A stretch of 64,000 nt of DNA, taken from contig CAWJBB010000068.1 in assembly GCA_963840855.1 (NCBI GenBank), positions 55,678-119,677 of the forward strand. The letters run 5' to 3'. A program made the position numbers and the translations under genes. The notes beneath the pieces are model-generated. The model saw only the letters and a program-made list of their open reading frames with translations, had not been told where the DNA came from and made no database searches. Every line of letters begins with the position of its first letter. Within the stretch, counting starts at the first letter, position 1. This DNA is from an uncultured delta proteobacterium. Its GTDB lineage: Bacteria > Desulfobacterota > Binatia > UBA9968. This document shows positions 1 through 49,580 of the stretch, one piece after another.

Positions 1-62
1 ACGGTTATTTCCACGATCGCTGATCGCCCACGAGGGCATGAAATTATCATTGTAACAATCGC

Positions 63-1049
63 ATGGTAAACACCGTCACAGTGTTCACTGGAAATCTGCT
101 CGCGATACTTTTCATGCTCGCTTGCGCGGCCTTCGAAGCCCAAGCACAAATGCACCGTATTGGCGTCTTGGTGCCCGAAATGGGCCGGGCGCAGTCCCAA
201 GCGCAAAAAGGACTGATCGAGGAACTGCAACAGTTAGGCTACCAACCACGGAAAAACGTCAGTTTTGAAATCCGCAATGCCAAGGGCAACCGAAATGCGC
301 TTCAACCCGCGGCCAATGAACTCGCCGCGAGTAAAATCAATTTAATTTTTACCACCGGAACCAGAGCCACGCTGGCGGCAAGCGCGGCCACGCGCGATAT
401 TCCCATCGTTTTCGTTCATCCGGGCGACCCCATCGCGTTGGGTCTCTTGAAAGGTTCCGGAGAATCCAGAGGCAACGTCATGGGTGTCGCCGCCTTCGCG
501 GCGCAAACGACGGACATCCGGCTCGCGCTTCTGAAAGAAATCTTTCCCGCGCTGCAAAAACTCCACATCTATTTTGACTCCAACAGCAGTTATGCAGCGG
601 AGAATTTGGCTCTAGTGGAATCCGCCGCCAAAAAGCTGGCTCTACATGTCGTTAACCACGGCGTAAAATCAGTGGACGAGTTGAAAGCGAGCGTCAGCGC
701 GACTCCGAGCGAGCAGGGCGCGGCAATTTTTCACATACCGGATGACCTGGTTGAAAGCGAGGTGGATTTCATCTTTGAAACGGCGCGGCAAAAGAAACTG
801 CCGACGATGTTCAACGAGGAGGCTTGGGCCATCGCCGGGGCGATGGCCGCCCACGGGCCCAACTATTTTCAGATGGGCCGCCAGGCCGGCCGTCTCGCGG
901 ACGGAATTCTCAAAGGACAAACGCGCGGTTCCGTGCCGGTCCAGCGTGCCGCTAAATTCGATCTGACGCTCAATTATCGGACGGCCAACATTATCGGATT
1001 GCGCCTTTCTCAGGAGATCTTGAAAAAAGCCGACAAGGTCATTCGCTGA
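63..1049 (+). CDS. Periplasmic substrate-binding protein (ABC_sub_bind / Trp-Tyr-binding type)
   Basis: Signal peptide (AFEAQA), RIGVL start, IPIVF..DP, GPNYFQMGRQAG, FDLTLNYRTA..IGL..ADKVI C-terminus typical of this family. Confidence 0.9.
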   Translation: MVNTVTVFTGNLLAILFMLACAAFEAQAQMHRIGVLVPEMGRAQSQAQKGLIEELQQLGYQPRKNVSFEIRNAKGNRNALQPAANELAASKINLIFTTGTRATLAASAATRDIPIVFVHPGDPIALGLLKGSGESRGNVMGVAAFAAQTTDIRLALLKEIFPALQKLHIYFDSNSSYAAENLALVESAAKKLALHVVNHGVKSVDELKASVSATPSEQGAAIFHIPDDLVESEVDFIFETARQKKLPTMFNEEAWAIAGAMAAHGPNYFQMGRQAGRLADGILKGQTRGSVPVQRAAKFDLTLNYRTANIIGLRLSQEILKKADKVIR

Positions 1050-1061
1050 CCGAGCCAACTC

Positions 1062-3728
1062 ATGGAGCCCGTCGCCGATACCATCAGAACCATTCCCATA
1101 TTCTCCGGGCTTTCCCGCGAGGATACCGCGAAGGTTCTCGGCAAAATGGAAGAGACTTCGTTTGCCGCCGGGACAACGATTGTTTCCCAAGGCGATCAGG
1201 GCGATGCGTTTTATCTGATTCAGTCCGGCGCGGTGCAGGTGATGTTGGAAAGCGACGCCGGCAAGTCGGAAGTCATCGCGGTGCTCGGGGCGAAGGACTG
1301 GTTCGGAGAAATGGCGCTGTTTACCGGCGAGCCACGTTCAGCGACGATCTTGGCGGTAAAGCCGACGATTCTCTGGCGCCTCAACCGCGAGGCCTGGGAT
1401 GATCTCATCGACAAACATCCGACCTGGCTCTTGCAGCTCTGCGCGACCCTGAGCAAACGACTGTCTCACCTGGATCGGCAATATTCCACGGGACGCGAAG
1501 CATTCAACTCGTTGGCGGGAGAGTTCTACAGCTCGCGGCCGCCCGAGCAGCAACAGTTTTTCCGCCGCGCCTGTCTGCTGAGCGATATCGACAGTTCCAC
1601 GGTAGAGCGGTTACTCGGCACGGCCGGGGCGAAATCATACCTGGCGGATCTCGAAAAGAACCGGTTCCGTCTGGTCCGCCGTCTGGACGGAACAAAATAC
1701 GAGCTGCACAGCTACTTCAAAGATTTCCTGCGGGAAAAGCTGCTCGAAACCGATGGCAAAGAAACCAAACTCAAGCTCGACCGGCAAATCAGCGCCGAGT
1801 ATGCGGCGCTGGGCGATTGGCGGCAAGCGGTTTACCATTTGTTGGAAGCCGGCGACTCGCCCAAAGCGGCCGAGCTTCTGATTGCGCAAAAGGAGCCGTT
1901 GCTGAGCGACGCTGTTGGGTTTGTCAAGGCGGCCATCGACTCCTTGCCCAGGGATCAACTTTATTCCGACCCGCGCCTGGTTCACTTGCACGCGACGGCG
2001 CTGGCCCAACTGGGCGACCCGGCGGGAGCCGTGCGCATTTACAGAGAAGTTCTTTCTCAACGATCTCGAGAAATTGCCGGGGCCGAGGCCATCACTCGCC
2101 ATATCCGCATGGCGGAAACTCTGGCGCGGCGAAAGGAATTTGGCCAGGCGCTTAGCGTTTTGCGCAGTGCCCTCGACATGGCCGGTCATGAGAGCGTGAC
2201 ATCGTCCGGCGACGTCTCGAGACTTTACCTCGACGCGAACCATCAGACGGCGACAAACCCGTTGGGCGCAGCTGGGGTCGTGGCATCGCCGTTCCGTTAC
2301 CGGCTAGGAAAATATTCCGGCTCAGTCGAAATAGGATCGGTCAGCAAATGGTTCGGCGCCATTCTCGGCTTGGGCCTATGGGGATATCTCTGGTTTGGCA
2401 AACCAGACATCGGCCTTGATGACAGCGGCACGAAACTACTCGGATTGTTGTCCCTAACGTTGATCTATTGGGTTTTCTGGGTGTTGCCCGATTACGGTGT
2501 AGCGTTCATCTTCGCCCTGGGACTGATACTTACCGGATTGGCATCGGGGGAAACCGTCCTGGGAGGCTTCGCCAGCACCACTTGGTTTATGACCCTGGGT
2601 GTGCTCGGCCTGGGAGCGGCGATCACCGGCTCAGGTCTATTTTATCGCCTCTCCCTGCACCTGGTGCGGTTTTTCCCTTTGAGTTTTTATTGGCAGGTCG
2701 TCGGCATGGGCCTCATGGGCGTCGTCGTCATGGCATTGATCCCGCAACAGACCGCAAGAACAGTCGTCATCAGCCAGATGCTGGTGAACCTTTCCGAGAG
2801 CCTTGGCTATAAAACCCCTTCCAGGGCATCCACCGGTTTGTTCGCCGCAAGTTTTCTTGGACTGGGCCAGCTCGGTTTTCTTTTTCTTACGGGTTCCACC
2901 ACCAGTTTGATCGCCTGGGGCCTGCTGCCCGCGGATGTGCGCAGCCAACTCACCTGGGGATATTGGTTTCTCGCCGCCCTTCCGCCCGCATCGATCGTCC
3001 TCATCATGGTGCTGGCCGCCATCGTTCTTATCTTCCGGCCCGAGTCGGAGCCGAAGATTTCTTATAAAATGGTGCAAACCCAACTGGATGTTCTGGGGCC
3101 GCTGTCCGCCAAGGAATGGATCAGTCTGGGAGTGCTCTGCTTCACAGTTACAGGGTGGCTTACGGTCTCTTATCACGGCATCGACGGCGCTTGGATCGCG
3201 TTGATTGCCTTTTGCGTTTTGGTCAATACCGGTGTCTTGGGCTGGCAAAATTTGAAAAAGGCGATTGATTGGGAATTACTCCTCTATATGGGCGTAACGT
3301 TGAGCATCCCCACGCTCTTAACTCAGGCCAGAATCGACCAATGGCTGGTGGAACTGATGACTCCGGCAATCGAACCTTTTATGAATCATCCCGCTTCGTT
3401 TTTCCTCGTTATCGCCCTGCTTACCTACGCGCTCAAATTGTTCTTTACTAGTTTCCTTACCGTGGTAACGCTCTCCGTCGCGTTGGTGCCATTGTCGGTC
3501 GATGTCGGCATGAGTCCCTGGATCATCGCCATGATCATTCTGATGGCATCGGAAGTCTGGTTTTTCCCGTTTCAGGTGGACTGGCACACGATGGCGTACT
3601 CCACCACCGAGAAAAAAGGTTTCAGCTATCCGCTCATGTGCCGCGTCAATCCCATCTACGCCCTCGCCTACATCACCGCCCTCATCGCAGCGATCCCGTA
3701 TTGGAGATACCTCGGCCTGATGGACTAG
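1062..3728 (+). CDS. Fusion: cNMP-binding domain + MalT-like winged-helix/TPR region + DASS/SLC13 anion transporter
   Basis: aa ~10-130 IPIFSGL..QGDQGDAFYLIQSGAV..FGEMALFTGEPRSAT (cNMP). aa ~150-280 QQQFFRRACLL..YELHSYFKDFL..AVYHLLEAGD (MalT WHD/arm). aa ~430-888 polytopic, with GGFASTTW, IPQQTAR, FLTGS, LGPLSAKE, AIDW (DASS). Confidence 0.85.
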   Translation: MEPVADTIRTIPIFSGLSREDTAKVLGKMEETSFAAGTTIVSQGDQGDAFYLIQSGAVQVMLESDAGKSEVIAVLGAKDWFGEMALFTGEPRSATILAVKPTILWRLNREAWDDLIDKHPTWLLQLCATLSKRLSHLDRQYSTGREAFNSLAGEFYSSRPPEQQQFFRRACLLSDIDSSTVERLLGTAGAKSYLADLEKNRFRLVRRLDGTKYELHSYFKDFLREKLLETDGKETKLKLDRQISAEYAALGDWRQAVYHLLEAGDSPKAAELLIAQKEPLLSDAVGFVKAAIDSLPRDQLYSDPRLVHLHATALAQLGDPAGAVRIYREVLSQRSREIAGAEAITRHIRMAETLARRKEFGQALSVLRSALDMAGHESVTSSGDVSRLYLDANHQTATNPLGAAGVVASPFRYRLGKYSGSVEIGSVSKWFGAILGLGLWGYLWFGKPDIGLDDSGTKLLGLLSLTLIYWVFWVLPDYGVAFIFALGLILTGLASGETVLGGFASTTWFMTLGVLGLGAAITGSGLFYRLSLHLVRFFPLSFYWQVVGMGLMGVVVMALIPQQTARTVVISQMLVNLSESLGYKTPSRASTGLFAASFLGLGQLGFLFLTGSTTSLIAWGLLPADVRSQLTWGYWFLAALPPASIVLIMVLAAIVLIFRPESEPKISYKMVQTQLDVLGPLSAKEWISLGVLCFTVTGWLTVSYHGIDGAWIALIAFCVLVNTGVLGWQNLKKAIDWELLLYMGVTLSIPTLLTQARIDQWLVELMTPAIEPFMNHPASFFLVIALLTYALKLFFTSFLTVVTLSVALVPLSVDVGMSPWIIAMIILMASEVWFFPFQVDWHTMAYSTTEKKGFSYPLMCRVNPIYALAYITALIAAIPYWRYLGLMD

Positions 3729-3848
3729 GCGCGACCGGAATACGCGCCCGTTCCCGAGGGATAAACTCTTTCGTTGTTCGCGCTCGTAGTTCGACCGTTT
3801 GACTTTGCTCACGACCCTCAGACTTGATCAAGCTGCCAAGCAAAGACT

Positions 3849-5669
3849 CTACTTGTGGCGTTGCACGTAGGGCTCCATCGTCGCTTCCACAGCAGTGTCT
3901 TCTTCGCGGTAGAACGCCGCTGAAGTGTAAACCAGGAGTGGCGCTTCTCGGCCTTGCACCTTGACTCGTTGTAACGGCTTCAACGGCACCCCCTCCGGTA
4001 GTTCTGCGGCGGTAAACTCGCTGATGAGCATCGGCACCCCCATCTCTTTTGTGAGCGCTTCAAGCCGGGAAGCGAGATTGACAACATCGCCAATCGCTGT
4101 GAAATCGGAGCGCAGCTCAGATCCAATACTTCCCACTACCGCATCTCCGGAGTTGATGCCGACGCCGATCTTTAAAGCCCGGCCCATAAGCTCCGCCCAT
4201 TTGGGGTCGAGGTTTTCCACCATTTCGACCATTTCGAGACCTGTCTTTACGGCTCTCAGGGCGTCATCGCCGTGAGATTTGGGCGATCCGAATACCGCCA
4301 TCATCCCGTCGCCGATAAATTTGTCCACCGTCCCACCATGCTTGAAGACGATCTCGGTAGTTTTCGCAAAGTATTCACTGAGGAACGACACGACCTGTTC
4401 AGGCTCGATTTGCTCCGAAATGCTGGTAAAGCCTCGGACATCCGAGAAAAGCACGGTAATATGCCGGCGCTTGCCACCGAGCGCGAGACCTTCGCGGTCT
4501 TCCAAAATCTCTTCGACGATATCGCGGGAAACGTATCTGCTGAATTGCGCGCGGTAACGAAGGCGTTCTCTTTGCTCCCTGACATAATTATTCAGAGTCA
4601 ATCCGCCATGGCTCAGCACGATTCCGAGGAGCGCCGGTGTCATGGGAAGCCAGAGCCGGTACTTTGAAAAAGCGATTATGCAACCCAAGACGAACAACGC
4701 GGCCAAGGCGATTACGACGGCGAAAGCCTTGACGGGTTTGAGCTGGATCGATGGCCAGATAGTAAACCCGCATAACAGGATAAAAATGAGCGCATGTTGC
4801 CAATCCGCGAGAGGGATAATTGGATTGCCGGCGTAGAACGTTTCAATCAAGTTGGCCTGGATCTCCACTCCAGCCATCGGCTGGGTGGCGGAAAAAGGCG
4901 TGCCAAAAACATCGTGCAGGCTGGGCGCGAAGGAGCCTATGAGAACGATCTTATCGCGAAACACGGCAGGGTCGATTTCATCCCGCAAGATTCGGTAGTA
5001 GGGCACGGTTGGATAGGTGCGCGGCGGGCCGCGAAAATTGATCAAGAGTGGCTCCAGACCGATCGTCATGTCCGGCGTCCTTTTGGATGTCATCGCCGCT
5101 TGCTGTATCAGATGAGCAAAGCTAGGGTAGACCTTATCTTGAAAGGACAACGCAGGCCGAGCGCTGCGAACAAGGCCGTCTTGGTCGGTGACCAGATTCA
5201 CCGGACCGTAGCCGAGCGCGTCCTCGCGAATCAAAGGAATCGGCAGGTTCATGGTCTTTTTGGGCCCGAAGTCACTCGCCACTTCGGTGAGCTCGCAGGC
5301 AAGAACTACGTTGCCGGCTTGTTTGATCGCTGCCGCGAGCTCGCGGTCCTCGCGCGGATCGGATTTGGGCTCCGTGAACAAAATATCGAGACCGATTATC
5401 CGGGCCTGGCTGCTTGAAAGCTTTCTGACCAGTGTGGCGTGAAGGTCGCGCGGCCATGGCCATGGTAAGTTGAGTTCGTCGAAAGAGTCCTGATCGATGC
5501 TCACAACCACAATGGGCGCTTCGGGGAGCATCGTTCCGCGCATTTGGAATCGCAGGTCCAGGCTGTGCAGCTCGATTTTAGCCAACAAACCAAGCTGGTA
5601 AGCGGTATAAATCAGCCCGGCCAGGCTCACTCCGATGATTACCGGCAGAAAATGCGCTTTAAGTTTCAT
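3849..5669 (-). CDS. CHASE2-domain class III adenylate/guanylate cyclase
   Basis: IVVVSIDQDS, WPWPR, D.DG.VR, GVEIQAN (CHASE2); three TM helices; LFSDVRGFT, DKFIGDGMMAVFG, FTAIGDVVNLASRLE (Lys/Thr specificity residues fit ATP). Start placed at ATG 5669 (ORF track 5738). Confidence 0.92.
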   Translation of the reverse strand: MKLKAHFLPVIIGVSLAGLIYTAYQLGLLAKIELHSLDLRFQMRGTMLPEAPIVVVSIDQDSFDELNLPWPWPRDLHATLVRKLSSSQARIIGLDILFTEPKSDPREDRELAAAIKQAGNVVLACELTEVASDFGPKKTMNLPIPLIREDALGYGPVNLVTDQDGLVRSARPALSFQDKVYPSFAHLIQQAAMTSKRTPDMTIGLEPLLINFRGPPRTYPTVPYYRILRDEIDPAVFRDKIVLIGSFAPSLHDVFGTPFSATQPMAGVEIQANLIETFYAGNPIIPLADWQHALIFILLCGFTIWPSIQLKPVKAFAVVIALAALFVLGCIIAFSKYRLWLPMTPALLGIVLSHGGLTLNNYVREQRERLRYRAQFSRYVSRDIVEEILEDREGLALGGKRRHITVLFSDVRGFTSISEQIEPEQVVSFLSEYFAKTTEIVFKHGGTVDKFIGDGMMAVFGSPKSHGDDALRAVKTGLEMVEMVENLDPKWAELMGRALKIGVGINSGDAVVGSIGSELRSDFTAIGDVVNLASRLEALTKEMGVPMLISEFTAAELPEGVPLKPLQRVKVQGREAPLLVYTSAAFYREEDTAVEATMEPYVQRHK

Positions 5670-6113
5670 GGGGCTCTGGTGGATCCGTGCAATCAGCGCT
5701 AAGCGACTGTTGATAGTCTGTCCTGTCGCATAATTCAATGCCCCTTCCAGTCAGATAAACTGGATTGACAGGTGAATCAATAACTCCTTGGCACTTGTTG
5801 GCGGTTTACGATTTCTCGTTAACCCCAACTCGGTTGAACGCGCGCCTGTTTCTATTTCCCGGACGAATCCGGCGCTCTTCTATGCGCCCTGCGATGAACG
5901 ACAAAACCTCGTAGTGGGTCCGACCAAATTTGTCTACGCTTCCGCTCATCAGTATCTTTACCGGGTTCGTATTCCCTCCCTTATGACCCCAGGAGTCACC
6001 AATAGTGAAGCCCTTTCTTAACGCCCTACTTTACGCCACCGATTGGCATGCTTACTGCACCTGCGCCGGGGAACATTCAATCCCTGAGCCGGCGTCAACG
6101 CCGGTGTGGCGAC

Positions 6114-6566
6114 ATGAAAACTTTACCGAAGACAATTTTTGTCAGTCTGCTGTTTCTTACCTCATGTTCCACAGGTATGGTGGGTTCCTCATCGACGCTC
6201 CGAGCGGATCCGGAAATTTTTTGGGTGGGCGAATTAGAGGTTAGGCTCTATCAAGATCGCGAAAAAATGACTCGCGAGCTGCCGCCGTCCTTGGCGTTGC
6301 CAGGCGCCTTGAGGATAGGCGGCAAGCAGCTCCAAATTTTCGGCTACTATGACGAACAAAACAAACGGATTTTTTCAGTAAATGACGCCCGCGTTCTGCT
6401 GCACGAAATTAAGCATTATTTGGAACCGCATTGGCGGCATGAAATTGGCGCTAACTACCTCGATGCGTTGGGGCAGGGTATCCAATCCGCCTGTGTCGAT
6501 TGTGCCGCTCCGACGCCAGAGAAGAGCTCGGTAGTCAATCCCATCCTCGTCGGCCAATCCCGTTAA
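6114..6566 (+). CDS. Hypothetical lipoprotein with HExxH and CxxC motifs
   Basis: MKTLPKTIFVSLLFLTSC lipobox-like signal; LLHEIKH; CVDC near the C-terminus. Confidence 0.6.
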   Translation: MKTLPKTIFVSLLFLTSCSTGMVGSSSTLRADPEIFWVGELEVRLYQDREKMTRELPPSLALPGALRIGGKQLQIFGYYDEQNKRIFSVNDARVLLHEIKHYLEPHWRHEIGANYLDALGQGIQSACVDCAAPTPEKSSVVNPILVGQSR

Positions 6567-8270: not shown

Positions 8271-8475
8271 TTTATCCTCTAGGTAACATCGATTCTCACA
8301 AATTTCCGGATTATCGCTGCTCATCCCTAAACTGTCAAGCAAATTAGTCAATGATGTTATAAACTTAGCAAAGCCCTTGACAATCATTTTTAACCCGGTA
8401 TAGCTGTTGCACTCGATAATTTTGATCGAGTGGCCGTGTGATTTTATGTCGACTGGTCTCAATTGGAGGACTTTG

Positions 8476-31580: not shown

Positions 31581-33740
31581 CGCACATCACCGCCCGTGAT
31601 TTCGGTTAAGAGTCCTTCCGTTTCTTTTTCCAACGCCAGGATGTCGGCGCGAATCTCCTCAAGCGATCCGGAGCGGCTGCGGTTTGTAGAAGTGGCGAGT
31701 GAAGGAGATTTCGTAGCCGACCTCGGTCTTGCTTTCATCGATCCACGCGTCGGGCGTGTAGGGCAACACTTCGCGGCGGATGAATGCTTCGATACCGCCT
31801 TCTTCGAGCAGCGGTACTTGCTCGGTATCGCGCAGTTCGGAGTCGGGCTCGTATTCGACAACTGCGGGCTTGCCGTCGACCGTGGCCGTGAATAGCCCGC
31901 GACAGTGGATCAGGCTCCACCTTGCCGGGTTTGTGGACTCTCGCAATCACCTCGCTTGCGTCTTCGTCACGCTCAGCAAGTACGGTCTGAAGGAGCTTCT
32001 TTCGTTTCGTGCTGAGTTTCACCCCGTGCTTGTCAGTGTCGCGCTCAACTGCGGCATAGAAGGCGTTGAAGTCAGTGTGAGGCCCTGACCCAATCGTTTC
32101 AGCTACACGATCCACGACGTTGGCGATTGGCTCCTCATCCGCCTCTATGCAGGCAGCTCCTCATCGCGGAAGGCGACGCCAGAGCTCGATGTCGTCACCG
32201 AGATCGACCTTCAGGCGCAGCGGCCGCTCGACCGTGACCTTCCAATAGCCGAAAGCTTCGTTCGGAAAGATCTTCGACTGCTCGGTTTCTTGAAAGGCGA
32301 GGAAATGTATCGCAGATGCGTTGGATATCGTCGTCCGACAGTTCGCAGTTTTTCTTGCCGAGGTTTTTGCGCAGCGGCTTGAACCATTGGGTTGCGTCGA
32401 TGAGTTGCACCTTGCCCTTGCGATGCTGCGCTTTGCGGTTGCTGATCACCCAGATGTAAGTCGCGATGCCGGTGTTGTAGAACATATTGAGCGGCAGAGC
32501 GACGATGGCTTCCAGCCAGTCTTTCTCGATAATCCAGCGACGGATGTTGCTCTCGCCCTGGCCGGCATCGCCGGTGAAGAGCGACGAGCCATTGTGGACT
32601 TCGGCGATGCGGCTGCCGAGCGGCGTGCCGTGCTTCATCTTCGACAGCATGTTCGCCAGGAAGAGCATTTGCCCGTCACTCGAACGGGTGATGAGGGAAT
32701 ATTCGGGGTCGCCGGCGTGCTCGATGATGAAACGAGGGTCCTTGATACCATCCTTGCCGCCCATGCGTTCGAGATCGCTCTTCCAGCTTTTGCCGTAGGG
32801 CGGGTTGGAAAGCATAAAGTCGAACTCGCGCGAGGGAAAGGCGTCGTTGGAAAGCGTGGAATGCTCGGGGCCGCCAACGATGTTGTCCGCCGCCTCGCCT
32901 TCGCCTTTCAGCAGCAGATCGGCCTTGCAGATCGCATAGGTCTCGGCATTGATCTCTTGACCGTAAAGGTGCGTGGCGACTTCCTTGCCGTGTTCCTTCG
33001 CGAGCTGCTGGAGGGTCTCCTCGCCCACGGTTAGCATGCCGCCGGTGCCGCAGGCACCGTCGTAAAGCAGATAAGTGCCTGACTCGATTCGATCGGCGAT
33101 AGGCAGGAATATCAGCTTCGCCATGAGCCGCACCGCATCGCGCGGCGTCCAGTGCTCCCCGGCTTCTTCGTTGTTTTCCTCGTTGAAGCTTCGAACGAGT
33201 TCCTCGAAAATCGATCCCATCGCATGGTTATCGAGGCCAGGATGCTTCAGTGAGCCGTCGTTATTGAGCGACAGGGTTGGGGCTCAGGTTGATTGAAGGA
33301 TCAAGAAACTTCTCGATGAGTGTGCCGAGTGCATCGGCCTTAGAGAGGCGCGGTATCTGGTTGCGAAACTCGAAGTTGTCGAAGATCTCCTGGACGTTGG
33401 GCGAATAGCCATCGAGATAGGCTTCGAAGTCGGCCTTGAGCTGCTGCTGGCTCGCGCGGGCGCGAAGGTCGCGAAGCGTAAACTTCGACGTGTTGTAGAA
33501 AGACTGGCCGGCTGCCTGCCGAAGCGCTTGATCCTGGTTTGTGATCCCGGCCTTGTCGAGCCTGGTCTTCATATCCAGCACGGCCTGCTTGGTTGGCTCC
33601 AAGACCGCGTCAAGACGCCGCAAAACCGTCATCGGCAGGATCACATCGCGATACTTGCCCCGCACGTAGAGATCGCGGAGCACATCGTCCGCAATACCCC
33701 AGATGAAATTCGTAATCCAGTTCAGGTCACCGTTACTCAT
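31577..33740 (-). CDS. hsdM: Type I RM m6A methyltransferase; frameshifted
   Basis: FIWGIADDVLRD, EAGEHWTPR, YDGACGTGGML, SNPPY, GYEISFTRHFY..LEEIRADILALE. Confidence 0.92.
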
Positions 33741-33899
33741 GTACAAATCAACCTCGGAATTTCCGCGGATTCTATTCGATTTGCCAGCCGGGGGGCAAGC
33801 AGGCTTTGTGTAGTTTAGTGATAGTTGTTAGTGTTTAGTGATAGTGGTAGAGGATAGAGGTTTTTTGCTACGAGCGCGATAAGGGATACGGATAAAAAA

Positions 33900-40394: not shown

Positions 40395-41927
40395 TCAGCT
40401 GGGACCGGAACCAAGCCTGGCTTCCTGCCCGGTCGCACTCCGGCGCCTCCACAACCAGCGAAGCACTGGGCTCAGGTACGCCAGCAAAGCAGCACCCATG
40501 AACAAGGCGGAGATCGGTCGTGACACGAAAATGACCGGACTGCCTCCGGAAAGCATTAGGGCCTGCCTCAGGGAGTTTTCCGACAGCTTTCCCAGGACCA
40601 GGGCCAGGATCAAGGGCACAATCGGATACTTGAGCTTGATCATGACGTAGGCCAGCAGGGCGAAACCAAGCATCATCCAGACGTCGAAAAGGCTGTTATT
40701 GACGCTGAAGGCCCCGACGGTTGCGAAAACAACGATGAGGCCCATCATGATCGAGTAGGGGATGCGCAGCATCACTACAAAGATCGGGATCAGAAAGATG
40801 TTCATGACCAGCAACAGAAAATTGCCGACATACATACTGGCGATGAGTCCCCACACAAGGTTTGCATGCTGCGTGAAAAGCAGAGGACCGGGGCGAATGC
40901 CCCACATCATGAAGCCTGCCAACATGACGGCCGTGGTGGCGGATCCGGGAATCCCCAGCGCCAGCAAGGGAGCAAAGCCGCTAATGGAGGCCGCGTTGTT
41001 CGCGGATTCCGGTGCAGCCACCCCTTCGATCGCTCCTCGCCCGAATCGCTCGGGATGTTTGGCGTACCGCTTCTCCGTCAGGTAGGCGATGAACGATGCG
41101 GTCGTGATGCCTCCCGCGGGGATCATTCCGATCACGAATCCAATGACGCTGCCCCGCACGATCGCCCAGCGCGAGGCAACCCAGTCCTCCCAGGTCAGAA
41201 ACATATCGCGCAGTCGCAGTTTGCCTTTGATCGTCTCTCGCTCGTCTTGGAGTTGCTCGATGCTATTGAACACCTCGGCGAGGCCGAACATCCCGCAGAT
41301 GAGAACGATGAAATCGAAGCCCCCGAGCAATTGCGGGACGCCAAAGGCAAACCGCGGCATTCCGCTCACCACGTCGAGGCCAACGGTCGTTAGGAGCAAG
41401 CCAAGCATCGTGGAGATGATGACCTTGAACGGGTTCTCCCCACCGAACACCGTCAGGAGGCCGAAAGCCATCAACGTGAGGGCGAAAAATTCGGCGGGCC
41501 CGAAGCGGAGGGCAAAGTTCGCTAGGGCCGGAGCAAAGGCCATCAGCAGGACTATGGAACCGGTTCCCGCAATCCATGAGCCGATGGCGGCCACCGACAG
41601 GGCGGCACCCGCTCGACCCTGCAAGGCCATCTGATAGCCGTCGAGGCACGTCATCACCGTCGAGGATTCTCCGGGCACGTTGATCAGGACCGAGGTTATA
41701 GTACCCCCGTAAGCAACCCCGTAGTAGATCCCCGCGAACATGATAATGGCCGAGGTTGGATTAATCGTGAAGGTCAGAGGAAGCAGGAGCGCAATGGCGG
41801 TCGGCGCGCCAATGCCGGGCAGGACGCCGATCAGCTGCCCCAAGAACACGCCGAAGCCGCAATACAGAATGTTCTGGAAGGTGAGGGCGACGGCAAATCC
41901 GTTATAGAGATTGTGAAAGAGTTCCAT
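40395..41927 (-). CDS. tctA: Tripartite tricarboxylate transporter TctA
   Basis: IGVLPGIG, YGGTITSVLINVPGE, GVAAPESANNA. Confidence 0.95.
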   Translation of the reverse strand: MELFHNLYNGFAVALTFQNILYCGFGVFLGQLIGVLPGIGAPTAIALLLPLTFTINPTSAIIMFAGIYYGVAYGGTITSVLINVPGESSTVMTCLDGYQMALQGRAGAALSVAAIGSWIAGTGSIVLLMAFAPALANFALRFGPAEFFALTLMAFGLLTVFGGENPFKVIISTMLGLLLTTVGLDVVSGMPRFAFGVPQLLGGFDFIVLICGMFGLAEVFNSIEQLQDERETIKGKLRLRDMFLTWEDWVASRWAIVRGSVIGFVIGMIPAGGITTASFIAYLTEKRYAKHPERFGRGAIEGVAAPESANNAASISGFAPLLALGIPGSATTAVMLAGFMMWGIRPGPLLFTQHANLVWGLIASMYVGNFLLLVMNIFLIPIFVVMLRIPYSIMMGLIVVFATVGAFSVNNSLFDVWMMLGFALLAYVMIKLKYPIVPLILALVLGKLSENSLRQALMLSGGSPVIFVSRPISALFMGAALLAYLSPVLRWLWRRRSATGQEARLGSGPS

Positions 41928-42017
41928 GCGTGTTGCCCTGTACCTGCACCCGATTTACTGTTCCATCGGATGGTGGCGTTTCACCTTCTGATGCCATGGC
42001 AGCACGCAGGTAATCTC

Positions 42018-42465
42018 TTACCACCCTACCAGGCCGGTCGGGAGCGGGATGGCCAGCCAGTGACCGAACAGAAAATGGATGCTCACCGCTGTCCCGATCG
42101 CTGCAACCCCGCACGTAATCCACCGATGTCCTCCTATCAATCGCATCGTGGCGCAGATGAAGAGACCAAATCCGACAGAAAAACCCAGAAGCGGGAAAAA
42201 GAGAAAGGTGGTCACAATAACCACTAGGACCTTGACTGCCATCCGGGTTCTCGGCTGGAAGAATGATTCCCTCGTGTTGGCCACACGAAGCTCCTGCGCG
42301 GTCACGACGGTAGCGCAGGCGGCGAGCACGTAGCCAATCCACGTAGGCAAAAACCCGGGGCCCGGACCATAGTCCGAATCGATACGGGAGTTGGCGCGAA
42401 AAGAAGATCACCGCAATACCCAGCGCCAGCACGGCGAATCCGCCGAAGACTCTCGCATGCCACAT
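42018..42465 (-). CDS. tctB: TctB; frameshifted
   Basis: YGPGPGFLP across frames, four TM segments, IPLPTG; lies between tctC and tctA. Confidence 0.8.
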
Positions 42466-42545
42466 GCTAATCCCACGAAGAAGAGACCTCACCCACGTTT
42501 CGGTTTGCGGGTGCGGGGGAGGCGTTGATGATTTTCTCTGTCTGC

Positions 42546-43548
42546 TTACTTGAGCAGCCCCAACTCAGTCAGGAGGGTCTTGAACTGCTGCTCACTCTGG
42601 GCCACAAAGGTCGGAAAACTCTTTGCTGCCCATCCAGGAGGGGCTGAGCAGGTATTTCTCCAAGTATTTTTCCTTCCACGCGGGGCTTTCGGCCATGCGC
42701 TTCATGACGTTCTCATAATAGGCTGCCGCCGCCGCAGAGATTCCAGGGGGCGCGGCGATGCCCCGGAACATCCTGAACGTGACGTCCAACCCCTTTTCCT
42801 TGAATGTAGGGACGTCCGAAAACTTGGAAAGGCGGCCTTCCCGAGCAACGATGAGAGGCCGCACGAGCTTGCCCTCCCACTGTGAGAAAAACTCGCCGGG
42901 ATTGGCCCAACTCAATTCCGTGTGCCCGCCGAGCAGTGATGTGATCACCTCCCCGCCGCTGTTGTACGGAATGTACCGGAGTTTGATCCCCGCAGCCCGC
43001 TCAAATATACGGTTGCACATCTGGTCTTCCTGCCCGGTTGCTGTGCCCCCGATGGTTACCGCTCCGGGACGCTGCTTCGCCGCCGCCACAACGTCCTCGA
43101 TGCTCTTGAAAGGAGAGTCCGCTTTCACGACGATCAAATTCTCATCGATCGCCAACCCGGCAATCAAGGTCAGATCATGGTACGTTGCCGCCCCCTTTCC
43201 CGCCGCCAAGGGCGCCGCTACCTGCCCGGAGATGAAAGTGACCAGCATGTGCTCGTTTCCCGGCGACTGGGCGACCGCCGTTGTTCCCACGGTGCTACTG
43301 CCACCGGGCTGGTTAACCACGATAAGCGGCGTGGGGTTTAGATTTGCTCCCTGAACAACGCTCGCCATGGACCTCGCGAACACATCGCTGCCCCCACCCG
43401 CGGCGTATGGAACAATGAACTGAATTGGCTTCGTAGGTTTCCATTGTTCTGCGGCCTTCCCCAGACCTCCGGGGACGAGCATCGCCAGAAGGACCAGTAC
43501 AAGCAGTTGAACCGGTCGAACTATGCAGCCACTCTTACTCGCGCTCAT
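42546..43548 (-). CDS. tctC: TctC/Bug substrate-binding protein; frameshift near the C-terminus
   Basis: IVPYAAGGGSDVFAR, NQPGG, PYNSGG, VPTFKE.G, ends TELGLLK. Confidence 0.92.
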
Positions 43549-43953
43549 GTTTGACCTCCCGTCTATTTGACATGCTCACCATTCGATAACCGTCCGCTCT
43601 TCAGTCATCTCGAAGTCAATGCTAGGAATTTGTCTTTGAGGTCCGGCCACTCTCCCGCGCAATCACCCCGTGCTCTGCGTTTTAAGAGCTGCGAGCAGCC
43701 GATCCAAAGGGTGACCTAACTTAGGAGGTTCGGCCTTTGGCGCGGAGGTTATCCAATCAGGTACCGTTATGTCAACTTGGGATTTTACGGTAGCGATGAG
43801 TAGGTTGAGTTCTTCGAGGTCGGTCAGCGTCGATTTGCTCTATCAATAGGCTTGATAAAATCGAGGCCACGCGGCGCTACATAGGCGTATTTGGGACGTT
43901 GCACGGAGAGCGAGGAGCGATAAACGACTTAGGCGACGTTAATTCAACCGGCC

Positions 43954-45328
43954 TTAGCCGGTTGCGACCCGGGCGGTAAGCCATCGCGCCGTGCGCAGCA
44001 GCCGCGCGTCGCAGGCGCGGGCCCAGAGCTGGAGCTATAGGTACGCCGCCGCGCGGGCCGACGAGCTGGACACCTATGGGTAACCCGTTTTTGGCTTGCA
44101 TGAGCGGCAAGCTGATGGCGGGCATACCGCACAACGTCCAAAGCGTGCAGAAGGAAGGATCGCCGGTGGCGTCGAGTCCTTTCGGCGCCGGGCCAGGAGC
44201 GGCCGGTGTGATAATTGCGTCATAGCGTTGTTCGAAAAGTTCAACCAAGCTTTTGTGAATCGGATCGATCCGCGCCAGCGCCCGTTGATAATCAATCGCC
44301 CGCACTTCCAGTCCCTGCTCGATCTGCTTGCGCAGCTTTTCCGAGAGACGATCTCGCCCCGTATTATATTCACGCTCCAGATTCAAAGCCATTTCGGCGC
44401 TCATGATCGTCTGGTGCTGCTCCCACGCTTCGGTGGCCGACGGAAATAGCTCGACCTCTTCCAGCCGGTCACCCAGATGTTCGACTAGCTCCGCGAAGCC
44501 TTCCTTGGTGTCGCCGTCAGCGCGCTCCCACATGGGCGTCTTGACCAGCGCGAACATCGGCTCAAGCGGCGGCTCTTCGCCGGCGACTTGGGTGAAAGGG
44601 ATGCGCGCCCGCGGCCTGGTGTCAGGGTCATGCTCGTCATAGCCGATAAGTTGCTCGGCAAGCAGCGCGATGTCATCCACGGCGCGCGCAAACAGGCCGA
44701 CATGATCCAGGGTGCGGGACAATGCGGAGACACCGTGGCGGGAAATGAGACCATGAGTCGGCTTGAAACCAACAACGCCGCAATAAGCCGCGGGACGAAT
44801 CGTGGAGCCGTTGGTCTGGCTGCCAAGCGCGAGGGAAACCATGCCCGAAGCAACCGCCGCAGCGGAGCCGCTGGACGAGCCGCCCGGTGTGTGTTCGGGG
44901 TTGTGCGGGTTACGGGTTTTTCCAGGAAAAAAATAGGCGAATTCCGTGGTCACGGTCTTACCCATGATCACGGCGCCCGCCGCGCGCAGCAGTGAAACCG
45001 CCGTAGCATCGCGCGACGGCGTGCGCCCCTTGTGCAAAACTGAGCCGTTCTCCGTCGGCATGTCGGCGGTGTCGAAGATGTCTTTGATGCCTACGGGAAC
45101 GCCGTGCAGCGGACCCATCGGCTGACCGGAAAGACGTAGCTCATCGGCGGCGCGCGCTTGCGCCAGAGCATGATCCGGAGCGAGAAACGCCCACGCCTCA
45201 ACTTGCGCGTCGACTTCGCGAATGCGCGCGAGGAAAGCTTCCACCAGTTGCTGCGAGCTGATCACGCCTTCGCGGATCAGCCTTGCTGCCTCGGTCGCGG
45301 AAAGCAAATGAAGATCAGTTAGATCCAT
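43954..45328 (-). CDS. Amidase signature family protein; C-terminus disturbed by a noisy duplication
   Basis: GVPVGIKD, PGGSSSGSAAAV, GSQTNGSTIRPA; probable true end DARLLRTARWLTARVATG at 43954. Confidence 0.92.
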
Positions 45329-45357
45329 GATGGTAAAGGAGTCGTTATCGTAATTTT

Positions 45358-45453
45358 AATGCAAAGTGAAAAGTGCAAAATGCAAAAGTTAAAGTGGCTG
45401 AGAGTCCGGAGACTTCATTTTTCTATTTGCACTTTGCATTCTGCAATTTGCAA
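45358..45453. repeat. 7-mer hairpin element (aatgcaa family, related to 39444-39550)
   Basis: aatgcaa agtgaaa agtgcaa aatgcaa / ctatttg cactttg cattctg caatttg. Confidence 0.8.
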
Positions 45454-47535
45454 TCAGTTTCCGTAGAGAAACTCCGGCAACCACAGCGTCATGCCCGGCC
45501 AGACGTACATAAAGACCAGACAGATGCACACGATAATCATATAGGGCATCATGCCGGCGAAAATTTGATTGAGAGTGACATGGGGCGGTGCGACGCCCTT
45601 TAAGTAGAATGCCGACATCGCCACGGGCGGGGATAGAAACGCCGCCTGCAGGTTCACCGCAACCATGGTGCCGAATAGGACTGGGTCCACTTGAAAGTGG
45701 CTCAACAGCGGAATGAAGATCGGGCAGAAGATTACGATGATCTCAGTCCACTCGAGCGGCCAGCCGAGCAGGAAAATGATCAATTGCGAGATGATCAGAA
45801 AGCCAACTGGCGACAGGTTCATCCCCAACACCCAGCGTTCGATAAGTCCTTGGCCGCCATGCAACGCGAAGACGCCGGAGAACAGCGCCGAGCCGACAAA
45901 GAGCCAACACACCATCGCTGTGGTCTTCGCTGTCAGGAATACCGATTCCTTGAGGTTCTGCCGTAGCTCGGGCGACTTCGGCAGGGCCCACAGCAGAGGT
46001 ATCACGGTTCCCGCGAACACGCCGCTGAGACTTCCTGACACGAGCAACGTCACGAAACCGCCGCGAGGCCAGCCGAGCGCAAGACCGACGATCGCCCCGG
46101 CCAGGCTCGACCACCAGACACGGCTTGGGTATTTCATCATGACCGCCAAATAGAGCGCTCCGAGTGCCCCGATCGCGGCCGACTCGGTGGCGGTGGTAAT
46201 CCCGAACAGGATCACCGCGAGAACTACGACGGTGAGCACCCCCAGCGGCACTACAGAAACCACTAACTCCTTCAAAATCTCCAGCTGGTCGCCATCCATG
46301 CGCCAGTAGTAGACGGCAAGCAAGATCGCACCGACGGCAGCAAACGCCCAGAACCAAGCATAGAAGTGCTCAGGGATCTTCCCCGCCGCCGATACGCTCG
46401 TCGGTTCGGTCAGTGAGCCCATCTGCTCGGGCGGCGCGTCGGCAGGCTGGGACGGCTCCGTCGACTCAACAGTCGTCTCCGCAGTGCCGAGCTCCTGCGG
46501 TTTCTCCTCCGGTGCAGCGAGCCCCTGTGCTGAACTTGTCGAAGCATCCTTAGATGTCTCCAGCTCGGTCGAGGAAGGCGGCGCCGTTGGAACGGTCTGG
46601 AGCGCGGGCACCGCTGCGCTCGTCGCTGCCGCAGGCGCGTTGTAGATCGTAACGTACCACCAGGCCGTGCCGAATGTGGCAACCGTCAGCGCCAGGGGTA
46701 CCATGGCCGCGAGCAGGTTCTTCCAGATCAGGCCGTAGCCCACGGGCTGACCGTCCGCGGTCTTCCCGCCCCGCAGCAGTCCTGGTCGGAACGCGGCAGC
46801 AATGATACCGCTGAGAACCCGCCGAGACCGGCCTCGCTCCAGTCGCTGCAGCCATTCCGGCACCTCGGTGCGGTACAGGCCTTCCGGTAACTTCGGCGCG
46901 ATCTTCGGGTTAATGATCGCCCAGCCGAGGATGTAGACAAGATAGAGAAAAGTAAGAAAGAAGCCCGGCAGCATCGCTGCCGCATACAGCTTCACGATCG
47001 ACTGCCCGGCCACAGCCGCGTACACGATCAACATCACCGAAGGAGGGATCAAAATACCGAGAGTACCGCCGGCGGCTATCGCGCCGGAGGCGAGCCGCAC
47101 ATCATATCCGGCATTCAACATCGGACGCAACGCAATCACGCCCATCAGCACCACCACGGCGCCGACAATGCCGGAGGCGATCCCCCAGAACGCGCAGACT
47201 AGCAGCGTCGTCACGGCGAGCGAAGCGGGCACCCGCCGAAACGCAAGCTGGACGCTATGGAACATCCGGTCGACCAGCGCCGCGCGTTCCATGATGTAAC
47301 CCATGAAGACAAACAGCGGCACAGACAGCAGCGTGTCATTGACCATGACGCCGTAAGTCCGCTGCACCATCAGATCGAAAACCCGGTTATCGTACCAGTG
47401 CTGACCCGGGATCCAGAAAGCCAAGAAGCCAAAGACCATTCCTAGCCCCATGAGCGTAAACGCGGTGGGAAAACCCATCATGATCGCGATCACGATGAGC
47501 CCGAGCATGGTCAGGCCGAGGATCGGATCGCTCAT
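45454..47535 (-). CDS. dctM: TRAP transporter large subunit with a long internal insertion
   Basis: GGTLGILIPPS, TATESAAIG, FLSPP; Pro/Ala/Thr/Glu-rich insert. Confidence 0.92.
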   Translation of the reverse strand: MSDPILGLTMLGLIVIAIMMGFPTAFTLMGLGMVFGFLAFWIPGQHWYDNRVFDLMVQRTYGVMVNDTLLSVPLFVFMGYIMERAALVDRMFHSVQLAFRRVPASLAVTTLLVCAFWGIASGIVGAVVVLMGVIALRPMLNAGYDVRLASGAIAAGGTLGILIPPSVMLIVYAAVAGQSIVKLYAAAMLPGFFLTFLYLVYILGWAIINPKIAPKLPEGLYRTEVPEWLQRLERGRSRRVLSGIIAAAFRPGLLRGGKTADGQPVGYGLIWKNLLAAMVPLALTVATFGTAWWYVTIYNAPAAATSAAVPALQTVPTAPPSSTELETSKDASTSSAQGLAAPEEKPQELGTAETTVESTEPSQPADAPPEQMGSLTEPTSVSAAGKIPEHFYAWFWAFAAVGAILLAVYYWRMDGDQLEILKELVVSVVPLGVLTVVVLAVILFGITTATESAAIGALGALYLAVMMKYPSRVWWSSLAGAIVGLALGWPRGGFVTLLVSGSLSGVFAGTVIPLLWALPKSPELRQNLKESVFLTAKTTAMVCWLFVGSALFSGVFALHGGQGLIERWVLGMNLSPVGFLIISQLIIFLLGWPLEWTEIIVIFCPIFIPLLSHFQVDPVLFGTMVAVNLQAAFLSPPVAMSAFYLKGVAPPHVTLNQIFAGMMPYMIIVCICLVFMYVWPGMTLWLPEFLYGN

Positions 47536-48209
47536 GATTTTTTGTGATCCTCGACATCCACGGCACTGCGATGACGCGCCGCTTCGTCAATAGCATGGGC
47601 CGACCCCATAGCGGTACGACGCGACTCTTCGTCGATGAATTCGCTATGCGAGAGCTGGGTTTCGATGACATCGATTTCCTCGACGTCCTCGAGCCGCGCG
47701 GGCCACGCGCCGGTTTGCAGGCACAGGATGCAGCGGAAGATCTCGGCTATCCCCTGGAGCATCACCAGCGCTCCCGCGATGGGAATCACCGATTTGAAGT
47801 GATAAATGGGCGGCCCCTCCGCGGTCACCGTCGAGTGCTCCCCGATGCGCCACGATTCCTCAGCGTAGCCGTAACCAGCGTAACTCAGCGCCAGGATGCC
47901 TGGAATGAAAAAAAGAAAATAGAGCGCGAGATCGAGAGCCGCTTGTCGGCGCGGTGAGAGCCGCCCGTACACGAAGTCGGCGCGGACATGCCCGCCGAGC
48001 GCGAGTGTGTAAGCACCGCACATCATGAATAGCGTACCGTAGAGCATGTTGTTCAAATCGAAAATCCAGGCCGTTGGCGCATTGAGGATGTAGCGCTTGA
48101 AGACCTCTACGGAAATCACGAAGGTCGCTGCGACGATCAGCCAGGCGAAGGCCTTGCCCGACCAATAACTGACATCATCGATGGTGCGAATCAGATCCTG
48201 AGAGTTCAT
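47532..48209 (-). CDS. dctQ: TRAP transporter small subunit
   Basis: EVFKRY.LNAPT.W, GHVRAD. Confidence 0.9.
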   Translation of the reverse strand: MNSQDLIRTIDDVSYWSGKAFAWLIVAATFVISVEVFKRYILNAPTAWIFDLNNMLYGTLFMMCGAYTLALGGHVRADFVYGRLSPRRQAALDLALYFLFFIPGILALSYAGYGYAEESWRIGEHSTVTAEGPPIYHFKSVIPIAGALVMLQGIAEIFRCILCLQTGAWPARLEDVEEIDVIETQLSHSEFIDEESRRTAMGSAHAIDEAARHRSAVDVEDHKKS

Positions 48210-48240
48210 GGATTAGACAGGCTCACCACAGGTTGCTGCA

Positions 48241-48281
48241 CAAAAGACGCCAGCCATCCGCCACATGGCGGATGGCTGGCG
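48241..48281 (-). terminator. 16-bp inverted repeat between dctP and dctQ (attenuating terminator or mRNA stabiliser)
   Basis: cgccagccatccgcca / tggcggatggctggcg, followed by tctttt on the minus strand. Confidence 0.7.
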
Positions 48282-48307
48282 GGATGGCGAGGAAGGGTCA
48301 CGGAGAG

Positions 48308-49487: not shown

Positions 49488-49580
49488 GGTCCGTATCCTT
49501 TCTTTATTGTTTATTGGCACGCACAGTCGCGGCAACCGACTATATACACGCTTGGGCTGATTAACGTCAATTGCTTTTAA

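Follow-up and report, generated by a model that had tools for sequence, protein, structure and literature searches.

Can a cyclic nucleotide act directly on a bacterial anion carrier of the DASS family? The question is raised by a fusion gene near the start of a 64,000-nucleotide stretch of DNA (hereafter, the window: contig CAWJBB010000068.1, positions 55,678 to 119,677) from GCA_963840855.1, a metagenome-assembled genome (MAG) of an uncultured delta proteobacterium (7.1 Mb, 8.27% contamination; G000 below). A preliminary description of the gene, prepared from the sequence alone, saw in it one uninterrupted 888-aa open reading frame (ORF) joining an intact cyclic-nucleotide (cNMP) pocket, a MalT-type winged-helix–arm–TPR piece without ATPase or helix-turn-helix (HTH) domain, and a full DASS/SLC13 membrane domain. 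Each of these elements was borne out. The ORF starts with ATG, and its product comprises, from N- to C-terminus, a cNMP-binding domain, a MalT-type winged-helix domain (WHD) with its arm, a few TPR-like helices, a disordered tether of ~50 residues and a complete DASS domain; the gene of a solute-binding protein (SBP) of family PF04392 lies directly upstream. With a probability of about 0.55, we read this protein as a dimeric, Na+-independent DASS-type anion carrier of the DiT/LaINDY branch, controlled from the cytoplasmic side through a cyclic nucleotide.

Before going on with such a reading, it has to be asked whether the gene is real. A chimeric contig, a read-through of separate genes or some other assembly artefact might be suspected from the contamination of the MAG and from the split look of several other window genes, but we consider this practically negligible. 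Of 8000 proteins scored in a word-indexed search, 549 reached E ≤ 1e-3, and all 120 listed homologues covered 100% of the query, being 884-897 aa long and 65-91% identical to it (they are named just 'anion transporter' or 'SLC13 family permease'). Nineteen further genomes of a class-level survey carry full-length copies, and contigs from independent soil metagenome runs read across the border between SBP and fusion (X1, 518-1477) as well as that between cNMP domain and WHD (X1, 1448-1753; X5, 1305-1543 and 1593-1973). The chimeric read that the preliminary description had named as a possible refutation can thus be set aside. The other window genes that look truncated or split encode an M17 aminopeptidase (partial catalytic domain), PBP2 (partial transpeptidase domain) and HsdM (two ORFs); their positions are 14035-15123, 17621-19060 and 32195-33746, and they could reflect frameshifts or assembly errors.

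How far does the family extend? Fifteen loci came from GTDB species genomes, all of them MAGs; nine carry the label Candidatus Binatia and six that of delta-proteobacteria. In the class-level sample, 43 of 301 genomes and 21 of 119 genera had a match at E ≤ 1e-60, among them 19 of the 25 other genomes of the family to which G000 belongs; an even sample at the phylum level (301 and 251 genomes, same sample) contained no match besides G000. Other families of the class (L026, L027, L031 and L032) have a form of ~800 aa that also starts with a cNMP domain. In a BLASTP alignment, this form shares 33% identity with aa 1-297 of the fusion and 37% with aa 403-887, so that only aa 298-402, i.e., the TPR-like stretch, are missing. 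A protein atlas holds a cluster of 144 members at 887 aa, most commonly from Candidatus Binatota, and one of 228 members at 802 aa, most commonly from Candidatus Methylomirabilota. The whole architecture is kept down to 30-34% overall identity (P0139 and P0236) and in the ~800-aa form. Overall, we conclude that the family is conserved, real and common in uncultured soil bacteria (MAGs of the Binatia and Methylomirabilota types). When shorter, stand-alone proteins related to the DASS half were sought, almost all matches were fragments of the same family; four of 462-475 aa on long contigs (P0276, P0277, P0290 and P0291) may stem from genes that are split or frameshifted. Among the relatives seen that lack a regulatory N-terminus, a stand-alone 492-aa DASS paralogue (G303:C15:32844-34220) was the nearest, with 31% identity to aa 430-886.

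The N-terminal domain matched Pfam cNMP_binding (PF00027) over aa 32-119 with E 2.8e-25 (88.6 bits against a cut-off of 27.5), and its best sequence matches were the regulatory domains of PKA and PKG (E 1e-28). Its phosphate-binding cassette reads FGEMAL...PRSA at aa 81-94, and G82, E83, R92 and A94 are invariant in the 38 family sequences in which we counted residue conservation. AlphaFold2 models were made in two parts, aa 1-430 and aa 427-888, each from an alignment of 14 sequences. In the first of them (mean pLDDT 80.4), a beta-barrel at aa 30-108 is followed by a single helix of 38 residues. The barrel superposed on 2pqq (Z 20.2), HCN4 (18.2), CNGA1 (18.1), the cyclic-nucleotide-binding (CNB) domain of SLC9C1 (17.4) and SthK (16.1), and the sole entry of another fold among the 50 listed structural matches of this model was MalT (8bob_D). 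Eight cNMP-domain matches were found in G000, and that of the fusion scores highest.

MalT is also where the middle block leads. A local match to NCBIfam PRK04841 placed aa 149-312 on residues 253-417 of MalT (E 5.9e-13; the 47.8 bits lie far below the whole-protein cut-off of 537 bits, as expected for a fragment). With phmmer, aa 139-443 had a single significant match in the PDB, MalT 8bob (E 4e-5, residues 268-410), and aa 144-328 of the model superposed on residues 247-417 of 8bob_D with Z 15.3 (root-mean-square deviation, rmsd, 2.9 Å over 162 residues). As described in PMC10427625, MalT is built of a nucleotide-binding domain (NBD, 1-181), a helical domain (HD, 182-248), a WHD (249-336) and an arm (337-423). 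Since the match begins at residue 247-253, past the HD, the block corresponds to WHD and arm and has no ATPase counterpart; in Pfam and NCBIfam scans, no ATPase family (AAA_16, NB-ARC or other P-loop families) and no HTH family matched the fusion ORF. We conclude that the middle block is the WHD-arm(-TPR) piece of a STAND protein of the MalT/AfsR type. A lack of MalT/STAND similarity in this region, which the preliminary description had listed among its refuting conditions, is thus not what we observed.

The relatives of the block agree with such an origin. An exhaustive search of aa 139-443 against 1.84 billion representatives returned 1459 matches at E ≤ 1e-3, 53 of them at ≤ 1e-10. The top matches came from the fusion family itself, either as fragments or as divergent full-length proteins (P0128, P0139 and P0236; 25-33% identity in this block), all with cNMP and DASS domains; proteins of ~1050-1130 aa, aligned at about their residues 250-480, came next. 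Domains were scanned in 45 of the 150 listed matches: 7 were family members, 21 ended in BTAD, 3 in GerE/LuxR and 1 in a cyclase domain, and the remaining 13 had TPR/AAA_16 only or no domain. AAA_16 or AAA_22 was found N-terminally in 9 of the 45. A family that we take to be a MalT-type winged helix, PF25873, is present on 117 of the 120 listed homologues. In the model, the winged helix consists of three helices and a beta-hairpin (aa 161-215). Its origin from CRP/FNR proteins was considered as well: CRP-family chains were the top Foldseek matches for aa 1-~230, with ~230 columns aligned at an rmsd of 10-13 Å. We did not adopt this origin because of such a poor superposition and because the sequence matches of aa 139-443 all lead to STAND proteins, the winged helix itself matching MalT, not CRP, at the sequence level.

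The model shows helical hairpins across aa 217-381, in which the TPR matches (aa 305-374) all stayed under the Pfam cut-offs. Beyond them, pLDDT falls below 50 across aa 381-430, and the variability of the tether agrees with this low confidence. Expressed as the median identity to the window protein across the family alignment, conservation amounts to 72% in the cNMP domain, 52% in WHD and arm, 44% in the TPR stretch, 23% at aa 401-430 and 78% in the DASS domain. By these values, sensor and carrier are the constrained parts of the fusion, which fits purifying selection.

The membrane domain matched Pfam Na_sulph_symp (PF00939) at aa 449-886 (E 1.2e-32, 113.9 bits against a cut-off of 27) and spans positions 23-471 of the 472 in that profile. 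Its model (mean pLDDT 82.3, pTM 0.78) has the two-domain elevator fold with two helical hairpins. Foldseek aligned it with AtDiT2.1 (TM-score 0.87/0.85, rmsd 3.3 Å), NaCT (0.82) and VcINDY (0.75-0.83), and the TRAP transporter SiaQM was also among the matches (E 1e-7). Searched against PDB sequences, a profile of the membrane domain found DiT1 (4.1e-33) and DiT2.1 (5.3e-33), followed by LaINDY (1.1e-28) and VcINDY (1.6e-13); for human SLC13A1, E was 1.2e-10.

Is this carrier coupled to Na+? In LaINDY, permanent surrogates stand in for both sodium ions, Arg159 at Na1 and His392 at Na2; exchangers conserve these residues, and cotransporters lack them (PMC7553777). The same source describes a substrate site lined by Pro154-Arg159, Thr208-Pro212, Ala396-Thr399 and Asn442-Pro444, a scaffold domain made of transmembrane helices TM1-4 and TM7-9, and two Ser-Asn-Thr-type motifs that bind carboxylates at the hairpin tips of DASS proteins. 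In our alignment, P-S-N-S-A-R (154-159) of LaINDY falls on P561-Q-Q-T-A-R566, P561 and R566 being invariant in 38/38 sequences, and the position of His392 is taken by K792 (Lys in 36/38, Arg in 2/38), which is basic but not His. LaINDY T-G-A-A-P (208-212) aligns with T610-G-S-T-T614, of which G611 and T613 are invariant in the family; also invariant is G553, at the position of LaINDY Glu146. Taken together, the profile E-values, R566 and K/R792 led us to reject a Na+-coupled symporter like VcINDY. The carrier appears to belong to the Na+-independent exchanger branch (DiT1/DiT2.1 and LaINDY), and since the charge compensation typical of exchangers is retained, its substrate should be anionic and its transport uncoupled from Na+. 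The hairpin tip of the ~800-aa form reads P-D-V-T-S-G, without Arg at the Na1 position.

The hairpin tips themselves are unusual. Q562-Q563-T564 aligns with S-N-S in LaINDY, S-T-T in DiT2.1 and S-V-S in DiT1 (position 564 is T or S in the family), so that the replacement of an SNT-type motif by QQT, already suspected in the preliminary description, indeed concerns the first hairpin tip. Beyond that earlier observation, the second tip is altered too: A-S-G-T (396-399) of LaINDY corresponds to T796-S-F-L799, which is conserved within the fusion family. In the alignment with LaINDY, neither tip of the fusion family has a motif of the Ser-Asn-Thr type. With both tips changed (QQT and SFL for SNS and SGT), the cargo would be an anion other than a classical C4-dicarboxylate.

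The surroundings of the fusion gene were compared in two sets of loci, one of 11 informative loci, the window included, and a systematic one of 19 loci from 18 class-survey genomes (G721, the genome of L020, and the truncated G843 were left out). In 22 of the 30 loci of both sets, the fusion is directly preceded by the gene of an SBP orthologue; in 15 of the 19 systematic loci this gene ends just before the fusion, and its product is 43-62% identical. G000 has 114 PF04392 matches, 57 of them of at least 250 aa. The window SBP is 43-70% identical to fusion-adjacent SBPs elsewhere and 24-34% identical to its 56 paralogues in G000 (median 29.2%, maximum 33.8%). A quick maximum-likelihood tree of 82 sequences (21 fusion-adjacent SBPs, the 56 paralogues and 5 non-adjacent operon SBPs; the partial one of L041 was left out) placed the 21 fusion-adjacent SBPs on one side of a branch, with an SH-aLRT of 99, and all others on the opposite side. 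Such a topology indicates that the SBP is most probably a dedicated orthologue paired with the fusion. No PF04392 neighbour of the ~800-aa form was found among the ORFs scanned.

PF04392 SBPs form a very large expansion in G000, with many tandem arrays (e.g., contig C6, 1216-14967). BPD_transp_2, which we take to be the ABC permease type usually partnering these SBPs, has only 12 matches in G000 and none on the contig of the window; thus, most PF04392 SBPs of this genome have no dedicated ABC partner and look like orphans. Solved relatives of the window SBP are 3lkv, 6hni and 3lft, two of which presumably bind aromatic amino acids. A second conserved SBP lineage (L024 8959-10011 and 4896-5918; also L008, L009, L033 and L047) groups apart from the fusion-adjacent SBPs and is part of the signalling operon, where it sits before the REC-cyclase or kinase gene, which suggests SBP-assisted sensing by the dCache kinase.

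Which gene products might make and remove the nucleotide? The window begins inside an operon, and the DNA upstream of it (L024, i.e., G000:C68:43678-56800) was included (Table 1). The gene order histidine kinase, REC protein, SBP, REC-cyclase, (metallo-beta-lactamase-fold, MBL, protein), SBP and fusion recurs in L008, L009, L012, L018 and L020; L010 is cut at the SBP. The convergent CHASE2-cyclase is also present in L008, at 95% identity. Nineteen class III cyclase matches were found in the 7.1 Mb of G000, and two of them lie within about 2.5 kb, flanking the fusion. Other loci are arranged differently. In L013, an MBL gene and a HAMP-cyclase gene adjoin the fusion; the divergently oriented gene upstream encodes a class-II cAMP phosphodiesterase in L050 (PF02112, 59.2 bits against a cut-off of 23.7) and an MBL orthologue in L049; L029, a divergent paralogue, has a convergent SCO4226-cyclase gene. 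Overall, a cyclase or an MBL/phosphodiesterase-type gene was found within the examined flank at 14 of 31 loci, in at least four arrangements. The chance expectation of a cyclase neighbour, calculated from 19 cyclases in 7.1 Mb, is roughly 3%, and the observed recurrence is far higher. We regard these neighbours as strong contextual support for regulation by a cyclic nucleotide, the diversity of the arrangements being a stronger argument than the locus counts.

As for the identity of the nucleotide, adenylyl cyclases have Lys, and guanylyl cyclases Glu, three residues ahead of the conserved Gly-Asp. At this position, Lys is found in the CHASE2-cyclase and in the cyclase of L029, whereas the REC-cyclase (L024 10008-11117 and its orthologues) has Arg, preceded by Glu, in 6/6 orthologues, and the HAMP-cyclase of L013 (6295-7341) has Glu. 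The catalytic domain of the REC-cyclase matched CyaB best (3r5g, E 4.2e-35) and also Cya2 (2w01). Judging from these sequences, cAMP would be our leading guess over cGMP.

Table 1. Features of the fusion gene and its surroundings. Positions are those of the window unless preceded by L024, the upstream DNA; aa, residues of the fusion protein
Feature	Position	Strand	Basis or remark
Fusion gene, 888 aa, ATG start: cNMP domain, MalT-type WHD-arm-TPR module, tether, DASS carrier	1062..3728	+	
Cyclic-nucleotide-binding domain, aa 1-140	1062..1481	+	Pfam cNMP_binding aa 32-119; CNB-like model
Phosphate-binding cassette, aa 81-95, F-G-E-M-A-L ... P-R-S-A-T	1302..1346	+	Invariant key residues
Long helix after barrel, aa 121-158, CRP C-helix position	1422..1535	+	DSSP of model
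MalT-type winged-helix + arm module, aa 144-328	1491..2045	+	NCBIfam, phmmer, AlphaFold2 model alignment
TPR-like helical hairpins, aa ~300-381	1959..2204	+	Sub-threshold TPR matches, model helices
Predicted disordered tether to TM1, aa 382-430	2205..2351	+	pLDDT, low conservation
DASS membrane domain, aa 431-888, putative exchanger branch	2352..3725	+	Profile vs PDB, model, Foldseek
Hairpin-1 tip P561-Q-Q-T-A-R566	2742..2759	+	R566 aligns with LaINDY Na1-surrogate Arg159
K792 + hairpin-2 tip T796-S-F-L-T800	3435..3461	+	K792 aligns with LaINDY Na2-surrogate His392
Partner SBP (third PF04392 SBP), ABC_sub_bind, 328 aa, hydrophobic N-terminal leader	63..1049 = L024 12063-13049	+	Pfam E 2.4e-50; stops 12 nt before fusion ATG
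CHASE2-class III nucleotidyl cyclase, 629 aa, convergent	3849..5738	-	CHASE2 2.7e-59, Guanylate_cyc 2.1e-24
NtrC-type response regulator	L024 1161-2504	+	
First PF04392 SBP	L024 4896-5918	+	
dCache-HAMP-GAF histidine kinase	L024 6068-8485	+	
Second PF04392 SBP	L024 8959-10011	+	
REC-class III cyclase	L024 10008-11117	+	4-nt overlap with second SBP gene
MBL protein	L024 11123-12055	+	RNase-Z-like

Several further genes deserve mention. Directly 3' of the fusion in L009 (10880-13270), a pyridine-nucleotide-disulphide oxidoreductase of 796 aa carries two cNMP-binding domains and 4Fe-4S motifs, by which it appears to be another unusual cNMP receptor. In L016, L017 and L019, a gene of the ornithine-cyclodeaminase family stands directly upstream of the fusion. 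Seven loci of the majority clade (L036, L037, L038, L040, L045, L046 and L048) have a divergent 5_nucleotid_C gene and a BPD_transp_1 permease gene, with Metallophos added in two and a molybdenum hydroxylase gene at four. Within the window, a 401-aa ORF (8407-9612, +) without a Pfam match has a long Pro/Thr-rich low-complexity tail, and G+C reaches 0.68 there. A promoter and terminator scan of window positions 1-6200 gave sites no more numerous than in shuffled sequence. Two metatranscriptome studies hold short contigs inside the fusion gene (X15: 1961-2191, 2207-2357, 2871-3027 and 3519-3723; X16: 2010-2156 and 2406-2554) with small word shares (0.09-0.12), contigs from RNA libraries not being proof of transcription.

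How might such a protein work? In the sub-clade of the window, the dCache histidine kinase would phosphorylate the REC-cyclase of the same operon; this pair, or the convergent CHASE2-cyclase, would raise the cNMP level, and the RNase-Z-like MBL protein, a likely phosphodiesterase, would lower it. By analogy with VcINDY, the DASS N-terminus would be cytoplasmic. There, cAMP (or cGMP) would bind the cassette of the N-terminal domain, and the long helix after the barrel might then re-orient the winged-helix module, as happens in CRP-type proteins. Anchored close to the membrane through its flexible tether, which leads to scaffold helix TM1, the WHD-arm(-TPR) module may dock on the cytoplasmic face of the dimer or leave it, by which the elevator movement would be blocked or freed. 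The anionic cargo would probably be handed over by the dedicated periplasmic PF04392 SBP.

Several observations weigh against this scenario. The membrane domain does not reach the NCBIfam 'dass' model TIGR00785 (126.1 bits against a cut-off of 198.6), and both hairpin tips are unlike those of every characterised DASS protein, so that transport itself has to be presumed. As the tether is disordered, no model shows a path of the signal to the carrier. The MBL protein scored 88.8 bits with the RNase Z model (cut-off 293) and 45.6 bits (E 5.4e-12) with the NCBIfam model for a cyclic-nucleotide-degrading phosphodiesterase, whose cut-off is 400. A REC-cyclase gene was found upstream in only 4 of the 19 systematic loci (three of the 19 have < 2.6 kb of upstream DNA); in most family members, the fusion is thus not adjoined by a cyclase gene. 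Because related genomes have a common ancestry, the locus counts overstate independence. Finally, the neighbouring cyclases disagree at the specificity position (Lys, Arg and Glu), so that cGMP is a candidate beside cAMP.

Keeping these points in mind, one may suppose that the protein is an ordinary carrier whose N-terminal domain binds some other small molecule or serves dimerisation or stability only. The fetched upstream DNA of 15 of the 19 systematic loci holds no cyclase; a relative in L028 (3491-6004) has a degenerate phosphate-binding cassette from which the Arg is gone, so that nucleotide binding may be lost there; and the list of fold matches includes CNB folds with other ligands, namely NtcA (2-oxoglutarate) and PycTIR (cUMP). 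We nevertheless consider this unlikely, since the Gly-Glu and Arg-Ser/Thr-Ala residues of the cassette, which hold the cyclic phosphate, are invariant in 38/38 sequences, no sequences match the domain better than the regulatory domains of PKA and PKG, and genes of cNMP turnover adjoin the fusion far above the expectation of roughly 3%. It is quite unlikely, too, that the protein is a transceptor or sensor, in which the DASS domain binds an anion without transporting it and the cNMP-WHD-TPR part recruits a partner and reports anion and cNMP status. The divergent hairpin tips would suit such a role, as would TPR-like helices able to bind proteins and the position of the gene within a signalling operon in the sub-clade of the window. 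The preliminary description had offered a transceptor as its alternative, but Pfam and NCBIfam scans of the ORF matched no output domain (kinase, HTH, GGDEF or similar), which leaves this idea without support; moreover, the TPR stretch is dispensable, being absent from the ~800-aa form, and a complete DASS fold, invariant basic surrogate residues and the highest conservation in the membrane domain fit a working carrier.

The exchanger-type signature also admits a cNMP-gated efflux or exchange of the nucleotide itself or of a related anionic metabolite, which would act as feedback on the messenger pool, a divergent periplasmic 5'-nucleotidase acting on the export product. In a scan of 12 loci that covered 49 of 60 ORFs, 7 loci had a 5'-nucleotidase gene pointing away from the SBP-fusion pair. 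We find this very improbable: a dedicated periplasmic SBP points to uptake, such efflux is without precedent among the DASS entries compared, and the link to the nucleotidase is one of adjacency alone.

How does this carrier compare with known systems? Among DASS proteins, LaINDY and DiT1/DiT2.1 (TC 2.A.47) are the best sequence and fold matches for aa 431-888, and they share with it the P-x-x-x-A-R motif of hairpin 1, with its Na1-replacing Arg, and a basic residue at Na2. Unlike the fusion, they have no cytoplasmic regulatory domain, and their tips read SNS/STT/SVS and SGT/SQT instead of QQT and SFL; in LaINDY, the Na2 surrogate is His instead of Lys, and its salt-bridge partner Glu146 is Gly in the fusion. 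We know of no SBP partner of the LaINDY/DiT exchangers. The bacterial cyclic-nucleotide-gated K+ channel SthK and the sperm Na+/H+ exchanger SLC9C1 likewise have a canonical cytoplasmic CNB domain on a membrane transport protein (Z 16-17 in superposition). However, their domain is C-terminal, attached via a C-linker or a voltage-sensor module, whereas that of the fusion is N-terminal, and a WHD-arm module of STAND origin together with the disordered tether connects it to an anion carrier of the elevator type. MalT and other STAND proteins (AAA_16-WHD-arm-TPR_MalT with a BTAD or LuxR effector) share the WHD and arm (aa 144-328). Since the fusion has neither the NBD/HD ATPase nor the long sensor superhelix nor the DNA-binding effector, its block cannot act as a nucleotide-driven oligomerisation switch. 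'Plug-on' transporters, in which an MFS carrier bears a CNB, PAS or UspA domain, resemble the fusion in having a fused cytoplasmic sensor and differ in carrier superfamily and linker. PMC10710835 describes MFS-CNB fusions as known only through the browsing of genomes and notes that no UspA fusion had been characterised by experiment.

With TRAP, TTT and TAXI-GltS systems, the fusion shares an elevator-type carrier, the DASS/TRAP fold and a dedicated SBP gene immediately upstream. It differs in that its SBP belongs to PF04392, known from ABC systems, in the absence of a small subunit of the Q type, and in the exchanger signature of a carrier not coupled to Na+; physical coupling of SBP and carrier is putative. 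As stated in PMC12344293, TRAP and TT were the only SBP-dependent secondary transporters known before TAXI-GltS, and the elevator mechanism is proposed there to be what permits SBP coupling. This source backs just the plausibility of SBPs being coupled to elevator carriers. It is tempting, though doubtful, to suppose that the SBP-fusion pair represents a fourth kind of binding-protein-dependent secondary transporter, gated from inside by cAMP or cGMP under a two-component-controlled cyclase. Elsewhere, at window positions 40395-49535 (-), the genes of a TTT system (TctA, TctC), of an amidase and of a TRAP system (DctP, DctQ, DctM) are neighbours; this organism already uses both classical families of SBP-dependent secondary transporters.

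We found no paper on a cNMP-DASS fusion; most subscription journals were outside the search. The family is unstudied, and its function as inferred here joins known kinds (a DASS carrier, CNB-regulated transport and elevator carriers assisted by an SBP) to a coupling module of STAND origin, which is unusual. Direct switching by a second messenger is a form of control not yet studied in the DASS family, and the fusion is probably a nutrient carrier switched in this way. The post-translational regulation of bacterial secondary transporters is poorly understood, and the fusion family is a small, experimentally accessible case in which a second messenger would act on an elevator-type carrier itself; the proteins that make, probably break down and read the signal are encoded by neighbouring genes. 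A WHD-arm module of STAND origin outside any ATPase also bears on how such modules pass on conformational change. If the SBP really feeds the carrier, dependence on a binding protein would be extended to DASS, which would help to test the elevator proposal of PMC12344293. If the whole scenario is true, it would describe an outside-in circuit leading from environmental sensing to the direct switching of nutrient uptake, with a STAND WHD-arm piece as the coupler. Given its frequency among uncultured soil bacteria, the family may be relevant to how carbon or nitrogen is taken up in soils.

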